From IMG/VR virus record IMGVR_UViG_3300036770_008730: 64,000 nucleotides of DNA. One strand, written 5' to 3'. A model generated the notes under the pieces. The model searched no databases and had not been told where the DNA came from. It saw only the letters and a list, made by a program, of their open reading frames with translations. The stretch is from a virus (taxonomy: Duplodnaviria > Caudoviricetes). A program made the translations under genes and the position numbers. Below are positions 38,696 to 54,612 of this stretch, in pieces (positions within the stretch are counted from its first letter, which is position 1; every line of letters starts with the position of its first letter).

Positions 38696-38728
38696 AAACC
38701 CTCAGATTTCTCTGAGGGTTTCTTTTTT
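38696..38728. terminator. Intrinsic terminator between convergent genes
   Basis: AAACCCTCAGA-TTTC-TCTGAGGGTTT with flanking A and T runs. Confidence 0.88.
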
Positions 38729-39806
38729 ATGCCAATGTTAAGAAAATCTTTCTGTTTCCTCTATCAACTGATAAAACCTTAGTTTTAATTTGTTGACCGG
38801 ATTGAAACTTTTTACCAAGTTTCTCCATTTCAGAAGTGTGAATTAATCCGATTGTTTCATCGTCTAATTTCACAAGTGTTCCAAACTGTTTAACATCTTT
38901 TACAACACCATCTAATGTTTGACCATTTTTAATGGTGTCCCAAAGAGTTTCTCTTAAGATTTGAGTAAGGATAATTTTATCCTTAATAATCTCTTTTACA
39001 TAGAATTCGATTCCAAATCCTGGTTTAATGTCACCAAGTTTATCTTGCCAATCAGGGTCGATATTTGCTTTGTGAATCATTCCAGTTAAACAATCGTTGA
39101 ATTCCACGAATACTCCAAAAGGAGTTGTTCCAGTTACAAAGCCACGGTATACATAGTTGTATTCTAATTCTTTAATTGCCGCTGGAATTAAAGATTGTAG
39201 ATACTTTCTACGACTTACAATGTAAGTTCCTTCTTGGTCAGAGAACGATTCGATCATTACTTCGAATGTTTGACCTACGATAGAATTAACATCGTAAAGT
39301 TTGTTAATACCGGCCAATGTGTTTGGCATAAATGCTGGTAGTGTTACACCACCGTGAGAAATTTCAACATCATAACCTGCTGGGTTAACAGATTTAATGA
39401 ATGCTGTTACTGATTGTCCTTCTTCTAAGGATTTCAGATTCTCGTGAGCTCTTGTTTCGTAAAGAGCTGCGATGCTACCTCTGATAAAATAATTATCATG
39501 GTTTACATCAACGATCAAAACATCGATAAAGTCATTAATTTGACTATTTTTAAGATACTTTGATTCAGATAACCTATCGTCAATTCTTACACAATCTTTA
39601 TATCCAGGTACGCTAAAAAGATAATGTCCTGAAAGTTGTCCGCAATATCTTGCTGATACTACTTCACCTTTGACAGGGGATTTGATGACTTCAAGGTCAT
39701 ACAATTTAAGAAGGTCCATGTCTAGTTTTTTAGTTAGACCTTTTTTTCCTACAGCTTCATCAAAGATAGAAGCTAATTCGGGGTTTCCGATTACTGTGTT
39801 TGTCAT
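38727..39806 (-). CDS. rpsA: Ribosomal protein S1-like multi-S1-domain protein
   Basis: About four S1/OB repeats, e.g. GFVTGTTPFGVFVEF...GMIHK and GVVKDVKQFGTLVKL...GLIHTSEM...KVLSVDRGNRKIFLT; 359 aa, shorter than host bS1. Confidence 0.8.
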   Translation of the reverse strand: MTNTVIGNPELASIFDEAVGKKGLTKKLDMDLLKLYDLEVIKSPVKGEVVSARYCGQLSGHYLFSVPGYKDCVRIDDRLSESKYLKNSQINDFIDVLIVDVNHDNYFIRGSIAALYETRAHENLKSLEEGQSVTAFIKSVNPAGYDVEISHGGVTLPAFMPNTLAGINKLYDVNSIVGQTFEVMIESFSDQEGTYIVSRRKYLQSLIPAAIKELEYNYVYRGFVTGTTPFGVFVEFNDCLTGMIHKANIDPDWQDKLGDIKPGFGIEFYVKEIIKDKIILTQILRETLWDTIKNGQTLDGVVKDVKQFGTLVKLDDETIGLIHTSEMEKLGKKFQSGQQIKTKVLSVDRGNRKIFLTLA

Positions 39807-39864
39807 ATTTATTTTTTGTGAGTTACAATTGTTTTATGTTTAAGAAACTAAAAGTTTACAAAAT

Positions 39865-40245
39865 TTAAAGTTTTTTTATTCCCTTTCTTGCCATGTAGTC
39901 TCTTATTCGAGCAGCGTCTTCATATTGCTCATTTTTGATACACTCGTTCAATTTATTATTAAGATGCTCAGTAACTTCTTCAATAGATTTAGATTTTAAA
40001 TCTGTTTCTAAAAAGGAGTTATAGTATTCTTTCATTTTATTTATGTTAGGTAGATATACCGGTAATAATTTAGAATTTTCTTCTTGAGTGATTTCTTTTA
40101 ATTTATCACTTTCTTCTATTTTTTTCAAAAATTCTGTTGTTAATGCTTGATTATCAATAAGATATTTAGCTAAATGATATGGTCTATTTTTGAACATCCT
40201 CAAAAGAAGATTCAAACTTTTATAGATTCTTTCATCTTTACTCAT
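39865..40245 (-). CDS. Protein with C-terminal UVR (UvrB/UvrC) helix
   Basis: LNNKLNECIKNEQYEDAARIRD. Confidence 0.7.
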   Translation of the reverse strand: MSKDERIYKSLNLLLRMFKNRPYHLAKYLIDNQALTTEFLKKIEESDKLKEITQEENSKLLPVYLPNINKMKEYYNSFLETDLKSKSIEEVTEHLNNKLNECIKNEQYEDAARIRDYMARKGIKKL

Positions 40246-40275
40246 ATAGTTTTTATGAATTGTGATTAATAAGTT

Positions 40276-40965
40276 TTAAATTTTAACAAATGATAATGTA
40301 AAATAATAATCCATAACATAAGTTGATGATGATTTTTCCTGATTAAAGAAAGCACGTATTGTTGAACCATCAAAAGATGTCTCTGTTTGAACTTTTTTCA
40401 TAATGTTTTCTTTTATATCTATATCATTTTTCCAGGTATTTTTATATCTCAAAACTGACTGGTTTCTTAAATCTCTATATGATATGTATAAGATAAGTTG
40501 ATCAAGCTTGTATCGATTCAAAACATTATAGTTTATATAGTTAGTCAATGCTACATTAACATCATTTTCTATAGTCATAGAATTTTGAATACCTTCAAAA
40601 GTTCTGTATCTTTTCATGGTTGAAAAAATATAGTCTGTTAATATGTTTTTCAAACTAATATCTAATATCCATTTTGTATTATTATTTCTATCATAATCAT
40701 TTTGCGAATCATCTATCACTAAAGTGTGATTTTTCGATTTACTATCACTAGATGAGTATATTATTGAAGGTAGTGTTGATTCAATAGAAAGATCAAGTTG
40801 TTCTCCATTTCTTCTTTGATAATAAACTATATTCTGATTTTCAATCATTATACTATCTTCTACATCGAGCATTTTTGCGCAGAAAAAATTACTTTCCTCA
40901 ACCATATTATATGTTCCATAAACTTTTTTATTTATGTATTCTGGTGATATGTATGTTCTTCTCAT
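40276..40965 (-). CDS. Putative virion structural protein
   Basis: 229 aa, last gene of the minus-strand structural cluster. Confidence 0.5.
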   Translation of the reverse strand: MRRTYISPEYINKKVYGTYNMVEESNFFCAKMLDVEDSIMIENQNIVYYQRRNGEQLDLSIESTLPSIIYSSSDSKSKNHTLVIDDSQNDYDRNNNTKWILDISLKNILTDYIFSTMKRYRTFEGIQNSMTIENDVNVALTNYINYNVLNRYKLDQLILYISYRDLRNQSVLRYKNTWKNDIDIKENIMKKVQTETSFDGSTIRAFFNQEKSSSTYVMDYYFTLSFVKI

Positions 40966-53767: not shown

Positions 53768-53771
53768 AATT

Positions 53772-54098
53772 ATGGTAGCTTTTATTACTGAATTAAATGA
53801 ATCTAATTACGATACAACAGTTTCTACTGGTTATGTGTTAGTTGATATATGGGCAACTTGGTGTGGCCCCTGTCGCATTATTTCTCCAATTATAGACGAA
53901 TTGTCTAATGAATATCAAGGCAGACTTACAGTTGGTAAATTAGACGCAGATGCTAATAAAGACAAAGTTTCTGAACTTGGTGTCAGAAATATTCCGACTA
54001 TTTTACTTTACAAAGATGGTGAGATTATTGACAAAAGTATTGGCGCTGCTACTAAAACCAAACTAAAAGAAATGATAGATAGTCATTTACCTCAATAA
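53772..54098 (+). CDS. trxA: Thioredoxin
   Basis: WATWCGPC, GVRNIPT. Confidence 0.95.
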   Translation: MVAFITELNESNYDTTVSTGYVLVDIWATWCGPCRIISPIIDELSNEYQGRLTVGKLDADANKDKVSELGVRNIPTILLYKDGEIIDKSIGAATKTKLKEMIDSHLPQ

Positions 54099-54117
54099 TG
54101 TTACTTATCACAGAAAC

Positions 54118-54162
54118 AAAAAGACGGATTTATTGTATAAAAATAAGTTCGTCTTTTTTTTT
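54118..54162 (+). terminator. Hairpin plus U-tract between trxA and smpB
   Basis: AAAAAGACGGATTTATT...AATAAGTTCGTCTTTTTTTTT, stem with two G-U pairs. Confidence 0.65.
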
Positions 54163-54174
54163 AATTTATAAATT

Positions 54175-54612
54175 ATGACTATATCTACAAATAGAAAAGC
54201 AAAATTTGAATACCACATCTTAGAGGAATACTCTGCTGGTATTATATTAACAGGTAACGAAGTAAAGTCAATTCGACTGAGTAATGTTAATATGCAGGAT
54301 TCTTTTATCTACTTAAAAGATGGTGAAGTTTGGATAAAAAACTTAAAGGTTGCTATGTATTCTCAAATGCATCGTCAAGATAAACACGAAGAGAATAGAG
54401 ATAAGAAATTACTTCTTACAAAGAAACAAATTCAAAAAATAGGAAAGGAGCTTTATAACACAGGTGTTACTTGTGTTCCACTTTCTATTTATATTCATAA
54501 GAATAGAATTAAAGTTAATATTGGAGTGGCTAAAGGAAAAAAGAGTTGGGATAAAAGAGAATCTATTAAGGAAAGAGATATAAAAAGAGAAATACAAAGA
54601 AATGGGTATTAG
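54175..54612 (+). CDS. smpB: SsrA-binding protein SmpB
   Basis: NRKAKFEYHILE...AGIILTGNEVKSIR...KKLLL...GKKSWDKRESIKERD. Confidence 0.95.
   Translation: MTISTNRKAKFEYHILEEYSAGIILTGNEVKSIRLSNVNMQDSFIYLKDGEVWIKNLKVAMYSQMHRQDKHEENRDKKLLLTKKQIQKIGKELYNTGVTCVPLSIYIHKNRIKVNIGVAKGKKSWDKRESIKERDIKREIQRNGY

Follow-up and report, generated by a model that had tools for sequence, protein, structure and literature searches.

A virus-derived stretch of DNA of 64,000 nucleotides (IMG/VR record IMGVR_UViG_3300036770_008730; Duplodnaviria, Caudoviricetes), referred to here in its whole length as the window, was found to encode phage copies of three proteins of bacterial translation, namely the SsrA-binding protein SmpB, a protein resembling ribosomal protein bS1 (the S1-like protein) and ribosomal protein bS21, together with a ClpP-family peptidase. 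The gene identities, their phage origin, their conservation in a clade of very large phages and a transfer-messenger RNA (tmRNA) in the closest relatives were observed in this analysis, and from them we infer every activity on the ribosome: the three proteins probably act on host ribosomes as set out below, SmpB in company with a distantly encoded, divergent phage tmRNA. The features concerned, with lengths in amino acid residues (aa), are the following.

54175–54612, plus strand: smpB, encoding the SsrA-binding protein (145 aa), its C-terminal tail intact (Pfam, NCBIfam equivalog)
38727–39806, minus strand: gene of the S1-like protein (359 aa), built of four OB (S1) domains after a short helical N-terminal stretch (PF00575)
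20265–20456, plus strand: rpsU-like gene of bS21 (63 aa), without an N-terminal extension (tblastn with the S21 proteins of relatives; TIGR00030; syntenic in LR745206.1)
51918–52481, plus strand: gene of a ClpP-family serine peptidase (187 aa), N-terminally short and probably accessory (PF00574, E 1.9e-24)

SmpB, bS21 and the S1-like protein would be phage-lineage copies scattered among unrelated early or middle genes. The preliminary description of this DNA, made from its sequence, had combined them with ClpP into one translation and ribosome-rescue module. The genes are intact, as it had described for SmpB, and SmpB and the S1-like protein were found to be conserved across the clade of large phages. 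The bS21 gene that it had counted in the module is real, since the TIGR00030 cut-off was passed, but it lies at 20265–20456, 18 kb outside the interval given for that module.

The phenomenon itself was published in 2020, when huge phages were reported to encode ribosomal proteins S1 and S21, tmRNAs and SmpB (Al-Shayeb et al. 2020, PMC7162821), and the window represents an added genome of the clade. With the Mahaphages of that report it shares the clade, the kinds of genes, the predicted role (redirection of host translation) and the scarcity of Shine-Dalgarno (SD) motifs in S1-bearing phages, and it differs in being a new relative whose nucleotide identity is about 70%. The main value of the original finding is thus confirmation on a new genome. 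The combination of genes, which the preliminary description had called rare, is indeed rare among phages in general; in the clade of the window it is the rule, and it had already been published. The additions made here are a clade-wide monophyletic SmpB, a protein to which PMC7162821 gives one sentence, and an overlooked tmRNA family in the nearest relatives; the tmRNAs of that paper were found by ARAGORN, which misses those of the relatives in the sub-lineage of the window.

Phage origin and the SmpB lineage

The nearest public records were LR745206.1 (634,780 bp) and LR756502.1 (642,428 bp), with a nucleotide identity of 69–71% to the window. They were taken as the two complete genomes, of 634 and 642 kb, that PMC7162821 circularised and assigned to the Mahaphage clade together with the Lak phages, predicting Bacteroidetes as the hosts. 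Matches in LR745206.1 were obtained for 26 of the 38 window genes compared (17.7–60.5 kb), and 25 of these 26 were collinear between positions 17.7–57.8 kb of the window and 294–348 kb of LR745206.1, the collinear set including the genes of bS21, the S1-like protein (66% identity) and SmpB (64%). This gene order, kept over 40 kb with a complete huge-phage genome, bears out the earlier view that the translation genes are borne by the phage, and the contig is not a chimera with host DNA. The window is probably part of a Mahaphage-type huge phage of roughly 600 kb with a host among the Bacteroidota.

The G+C content of the window is 26–36% throughout, except in the last 2 kb. Translation table 11 yielded dense open reading frames (ORFs) across the window, and an alternative genetic code of the Lak type, which was considered, is therefore not needed. 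Near-identical DNA was found in subsurface and freshwater metagenomes from 11 studies, and exact-pattern and protein searches of a viral contig collection gave neither the contig itself nor close relatives.

The SmpB of the window matched Pfam PF01668 with E 2.6e-52 (177 bits) and scored above the equivalog cut-offs of both NF003843 (180 bits, cut-off 130) and TIGR00086 (170 bits, cut-off 119). Its tail, GKKSWDKR..., aligned in register with those of solved SmpBs, which confirmed the intact GKK..DKR tail noticed earlier; as in bacterial SmpB, the protein is of full length with a conserved tail. Within 31 SmpBs of the phage clade, residues G121-K122-K123 and K127 were invariant, D126 was nearly so, and many core residues were also invariant, while R128 of the DKR motif was not among the conserved columns listed. 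More than 120 metagenomic proteins of 144–145 aa were homologous at 64–96% identity, and both of the metagenomic loci looked up (2/2) had the same order of genes, ligase, sigma factor, nucleotidyltransferase, thioredoxin and SmpB.

In a sample of Bacteroidota, SmpB was present in 299 of 301 genomes, and its identity to the window protein was at most 50% in all of them. A phylogeny against the Bacteroidota proteins, which the preliminary description had suggested as a check, placed the proteins of the window, LR745206.1 and LR756502.1 and the metagenomic proteins on one separate branch (SH-aLRT 99, stem of 0.85 changes per site), whose position among the bacterial SmpBs is not settled by the tree. 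The SmpB of LR756504.1 fell outside this branch, with the Bacteroidota. Judged from these sequences, the phage SmpB is a long-resident and constrained phage gene and not a recent passenger.

SmpB is a vertically inherited hallmark of phages of 540–735 kb and not a sporadic capture. A homologue was found in 68 of the 50,697 records of a phage collection, and among the matches listed were all 15 Lak records and six huge LR7 records. Several of the small records listed from Klebsiella, E. coli and Staphylococcus had smpB at the end of the record, and these were read as prophage-boundary artefacts beside ssrA attachment sites. The other small records listed were unannotated Listeria, Enterococcus and fecal contigs, Pseudomonas phage Y6 and Staphylococcus phage ISU935, smpB lying well inside the record in the last two.

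The S1-like protein, bS21 and their proposed role in initiation

The S1-like protein matched PF00575, and the four domains attributed to it were recovered in an AlphaFold model (pLDDT 76.5), with OB domains at about residues 45–111, 130–198, 218–282 and 295–358; two short helices preceding domain 1 were modelled at low confidence. Ribosomal protein bS1 has six domains in Bacteroidota and E. coli and four in low-GC Gram-positive bacteria. With bS1 the phage protein shares tandem S1/OB domains, collinear with residues 63–345 (D1–D4) of the E. coli protein and including its ribosome-binding half, whereas it differs in its length of 359 aa, in having four domains and in falling below the rpsA cut-offs. 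The best S1 model gave 112 bits against a cut-off of 624, and the scores as a whole ranged over about 80–110 bits against cut-offs of 368–918; the NCBIfam four-domain S1 model PRK06676 also aligned with the protein. More than 120 homologues were obtained, with 67–98% identity, and about 110 columns were invariant in 30 relatives. A second ORF with an S1 domain, of about 644 aa, was seen in LR745206.1 at 195 kb.

Binding to ribosomal protein uS2 was examined by a complex test with residues 1–125 of the S1-like protein and uS2 of B. thetaiotaomicron, which gave an ipSAE of 0.41 against 0.00 for the best control. The mark used in this test was reached by 51 of 78 solved pairs and by 2 of 108 mismatches; at values of 0.60 or less it was reached by only five solved pairs and by all four mismatches that passed. 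Agreement of contacts between runs was at least 69%, the pLDDT of the partner was at least 69, and the outcome was graded as weak support.

The bS21 of the window scored 31.4 bits on TIGR00030, above the cut-off of 28.95, and its orthologues in relatives scored 44–46 bits on PF01165. An SD-like 4-mer was found upstream of one of 51 window genes against a background of 8.5%, which is a depletion, and the leaders of the 51 gene starts were composed of 85% A+T (48% A, 37% T). Phages with possible S1 genes were reported to have SD motifs rarely, with the warning that a true rpS1 is hard to confirm (PMC7162821). The ribosomes of Bacteroidia are blind to SD motifs because their anti-SD sequence is sequestered with the help of bS21 (PMC7797042, PMC9976891). 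The phage bS21 and S1-like proteins would most likely join host 30S subunits and hold initiation independent of SD pairing, as would suit the A/T-rich phage leaders; that they keep the host 30S subunit in an SD-independent mode suited to the phage mRNAs may reasonably be supposed, and no more than that.

It is somewhat unlikely that the S1-like protein is not a ribosomal subunit and is instead a free RNA-binding protein, acting for example in RNA chaperoning or mRNA stability or as cofactor to a nuclease or polymerase of the phage. Scores far below the rpsA cut-offs and similar to those against other S1-repeat proteins such as Rrp5, a location beside genes of peptidases, of a Toprim protein and of a UVR-motif protein and not beside translation genes, and the published caution about rpS1 would all fit a free protein; the collinearity with bS1 D1–D4, the N-terminal helix ahead of D1, the weakly positive uS2 test (0.41 against 0.00) and the invariant columns in the 30 relatives argue for a ribosomal one.

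A divergent tmRNA in the closest relatives

In agreement with the preliminary description, no tmRNA was found in the window: neither a tRNA nor a tmRNA was returned by ARAGORN or Rfam, nor any further Rfam family, and the profile made from the lineage's divergent tmRNA was likewise negative. With ARAGORN and RF00023 (E 0.01, whole records) no tmRNA was obtained from LR745206.1 or LR756502.1 either, and in LR745206.1 other Mahaphage tmRNAs used as blastn and nhmmer queries, and a regular expression, gave negative results or false matches. The tmRNA of LR745206.1 was located by synteny, downstream of the NFACT-R gene. This gene, at 202.5 kb, is followed by an ORF of 452 aa, an ORF of 169 aa and a gap of 609 nt, which contains a tmRNA element of 382 nt (204891–205272) with GGGGATG at its 5′ end and CATCTCCAC as its 3′ end. 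LR756502.1 carries a copy at 231979–232358 that is 76% identical and whose acceptor stem and T-arm show compensatory changes. The distance from the tmRNA to smpB is about 128 kb in both of these closest complete relatives.

A 20-nt pattern from the 5′ end of the tmRNA retrieved 27 metagenome contigs, 25 of which held the complete element (365–383 nt); one more ended before the 3′ end of the element, and one was without it. A tag of 29 codons with the core EDLV(A/F)ALQNN(M/L)L was present in 26 of the metagenome contigs as well as in LR745206.1 and LR756502.1; in one metagenome contig, L139, the tag frame had 34 residues.

Nineteen distinct copies, 17 of them from metagenomes, were folded with RNAalifold. 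All 19 showed a seven-pair acceptor stem with G3.U, and the consensus included a long closing P2 helix and a T-arm in which three pairs had two-sided (compensatory) changes. Two-sided changes were found at 23 of the 65 consensus pairs; the T-loop was non-canonical. The element lies below RF00023: when a piece of 1.2 kb was searched with that model, it went unreported even at E 10. The profile of the divergent tmRNA found exactly one copy in LR745206.1. On these sequence features the element of the relatives is of tmRNA architecture, and it shares with bacterial tmRNA the acceptor G3.U, the T-arm and P2 helix and an internal frame for the tag. It differs from bacterial trans-translation in the 29-residue tag with its conserved internal core and often non-LAA end, in the non-canonical T-loop, and in the separation of smpB and ssrA by more than 100 kb in the relatives.

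Matches to RF00023 were obtained in LR756500.1, LR756504.1 and three Lak genomes, and ARAGORN detected one of these five other Mahaphage tmRNAs. Those of Lak-A1, C1 and B1 and of LR756504.1 were missed by ARAGORN and scored 47–65 bits by Infernal; inspected by eye, they have the resume context TTAAAT/GAC, the Lak tags ending in RMAA and the 24-residue tag of LR756504.1 in AVAA. SmpB and tmRNA occur together in the Lak phages and in LR756504.1, and every complete relative with an SmpB of the window-type clade also carries the divergent tmRNA. Since the tmRNA of the sub-lineage is overlooked by the usual detection programs, phage tmRNAs are probably undercounted in surveys that rely on ARAGORN or Rfam; the conserved long tag could be sought in metaproteomes.

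The occurrence of tmRNA in the closest relatives strengthens the idea of ribosome rescue put forward in the preliminary description. SmpB would have been inherited within the phage clade and would most likely work with a phage-encoded, highly divergent and distantly located tmRNA. During infection, host ribosomes stalled on truncated mRNAs would be released by this tmRNA, which would append the conserved 29-residue tag. A further step can be put forward tentatively, with somewhat less than even confidence: the sub-lineage may run a trans-translation pair of its own, possibly orthogonal to that of the host, whose tag leads to a phage-specific fate and not to the usual degradation by ClpXP.

Several observations weigh against the proposed action of these proteins on host ribosomes. 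The S1-like protein scored 88 bits against a cut-off of 577 for rpsA (TIGR00717) and has four domains, not six, and the uS2 result carries its grade of weak support. The C-terminal ends of the tags vary, many variants not being a degron of the LAA type. LR756500.1 has a tmRNA and no SmpB, and none of the RNA runs searched for the stretch was found to contain it.

The case of LR756500.1 implies that a phage tmRNA can use the SmpB of the host, and by symmetry a phage SmpB could use the tmRNA of the host. It is, however, quite unlikely that the phage SmpB uses host tmRNA only, raising trans-translation when the host SmpB is limiting or destroyed, with a phage tmRNA irrelevant or absent. Such a role would be compatible with the distance of about 128 kb between SmpB and tmRNA in the relatives, where the two lack obvious co-regulation, with the single occurrence shown possible by LR756500.1 and with the canonical SmpB motifs retained. 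On the other hand, all complete relatives with this SmpB clade carry the divergent tmRNA, and the clade is long-branched, with at most 50% identity to Bacteroidota SmpB, which fits adaptation to a divergent tRNA-like domain. Pairing of the phage SmpB with the phage tmRNA is the preferred reading.

The ClpP-like peptidase and the neighbouring genes

The peptidase described earlier as a ClpP with a full catalytic triad is encoded by the third gene upstream of smpB, and its Ser94, His117 and the Asp of KKDW aligned with the ClpP triad, the first two being invariant in 48 relatives of the protein. Its AlphaFold model had a pLDDT of 97.8, and a Foldseek search matched solved ClpPs with a TM of 0.8 at 24% identity. 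In ClpP, the N-terminal loops and helix A serve in pore gating and support the docking of the ATPase. The phage protein is without the N-terminal axial loops and helix A: the profile matches begin at model position 38, and strand 1 of the AlphaFold model lies at residue 11. Helix B is lengthened in the model. The protein scored 60.8 bits on TIGR00493 (cut-off 308.6), 73 bits on the best ClpP model (cut-off 249) and 63 bits on the head-protease model NF045542 (cut-off 120), and 47 relatives likewise failed to reach the cut-offs of either ClpP or the head protease. With ClpP and the ClpP-related phage head proteases it shares the fold, the handle helix and the Ser-His-Asp triad. It differs from ClpP in the missing N-terminal loops and helix A, the lengthened helix B and the score below the cut-off, and from phage head maturation proteases in its score on NF045542 and its position away from capsid genes. 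An identification as a prohead protease was rejected on that score and on the neighbours, which are genes of a sigma factor, a nucleotidyltransferase and a thioredoxin and not of the capsid.

At the syntenic site the ClpP-like gene is present in LR756502.1 and in the metagenomic contig L081 and absent from LR745206.1 and the metagenomic contig L080. The relatives encode, elsewhere in the genome, two ClpPs with canonical scores and a Clp-type AAA_2 ATPase. The link between ClpP and rescue drawn in the preliminary description was not supported: the protein has neither the N-terminal loops nor helix A, falls below every ClpP cut-off and is missing at the LR745206.1 site, and canonical ClpPs occur elsewhere in the relatives. 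It is tied to SmpB by proximity alone, and its link to trans-translation is unsupported. It may be regarded as an accessory, N-terminally truncated peptidase of the ClpP family.

That this peptidase is the protease arm of a rescue system and degrades the tagged products is very unlikely. The ClpP fold and triad are present, some relatives also have the gene at the third position before smpB, and the relatives encode an ATPase of the Clp type (AAA_2); against this stand the loss of the axial loops and helix A with scores below the cut-offs, the absence of the gene at its site in LR745206.1 and L080 while smpB is kept, the two canonical ClpPs elsewhere and the many tags without an LAA end.

The other features of the region are as follows.

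32829–33941 and 37954–38694: genes of M16 and M28 family peptidases, flanking the S1-like region
35076–36041: gene of a Toprim-domain protein
39865–40245, minus strand: gene of a UVR-motif (UvrB/UvrC) protein of 126 aa (Pfam/NCBIfam; weakly McsA-like)
40962–45092 and 45094–48279, minus strand: two adjacent giant ORFs of 1376 and 1061 aa, without a Pfam domain
48413–50233, plus strand: gene of an NAD-dependent DNA ligase (Pfam/NCBIfam)
51163–51897, plus strand: gene of an ECF-type sigma-70 factor, the first of a co-directional run (Pfam Sigma70_r2 and r4; TIGR02937)
52482–53735, plus strand: gene of a putative Gad2-like nucleotidyltransferase of 417 aa (weak precomputed PF26128 match; atlas features 0.98 against viral Gad2 clusters)
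53772–54098, plus strand: thioredoxin gene trx (PF00085, E 1.5e-28)
54118–54158, plus strand: terminator-like hairpin with a T-run, between trx and smpB (consensus scan)
54602–54982, plus strand: ORF of 126 aa overlapping the stop of smpB by 11 nt (ORF call)

The module of the preliminary description did not stand. The translation genes extend over 34 kb and both strands, with the ligase, the ECF sigma factor, the Gad2-like protein, the thioredoxin, peptidases and the giant ORFs between them and the hairpin between trx and smpB. The S1-like gene is on the opposite strand, 14 kb away and amid peptidases, and bS21 is 34 kb away. These genes share a theme and are not an operon or a defined system. 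Terminator-like sites in the region were no more numerous than expected by chance.

The sigma factor scored 79 bits on TIGR02937 (cut-off 42.9) and is syntenic in the relatives; the nucleotidyltransferase gene was next to it in all the relatives examined. The 417-aa nucleotidyltransferase gave no match in a sequence search of the PDB. From its sequence features it looks like a candidate Gad2-like anti-defence enzyme and not a translation factor, Gad2 (Gabija anti-defence 2) being an anti-defence nucleotidyltransferase of phages. On the Gad2-like atlas features and the weak PF26128 match it is taken not to be a CCA-adding, tRNA-repair or other RNA-repair enzyme.

Least probable by far, and already contradicted, is that the region is host Bacteroidota DNA wrongly assembled with a phage contig, or that host genes were passively captured not long ago: SmpB, S1, bS21, ClpP, the thioredoxin and the sigma factor are all typical cellular genes, and smpB at the record end in many supposed phage records is a prophage-boundary artefact, but the gene-by-gene collinearity over 40 kb with a complete, circularised phage genome, the uniform G+C content of 26–36% and the identity of SmpB, at most 50% to Bacteroidota against 64–96% within the phage clade, speak against both, and from the collinearity a chimera with host DNA can therefore be excluded for practical purposes.

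Directly downstream of the S1-like gene comes the UVR-motif gene, whose position is shared by LR745206.1 in synteny. The giant ORFs are 58–70% identical in LR745206.1, and the second (45094–48279) matches phrog_29329. The 126-aa ORF at the end of smpB gave only a 21-bit match, to the C-terminus of HamA (PADLOC), and nothing usable in an atlas search; it is kept in LR745206.1 (41% identity) and L080 and absent in L081. Between positions 62000 and 64000 of the window the G+C content rises to 43%, with long open frames of about 420–430 codons on each strand. ARAGORN predicted 59 tRNA genes in LR745206.1, with arrays at 342–421 kb and two odd predictions with anticodons of 2 or 4 bases.

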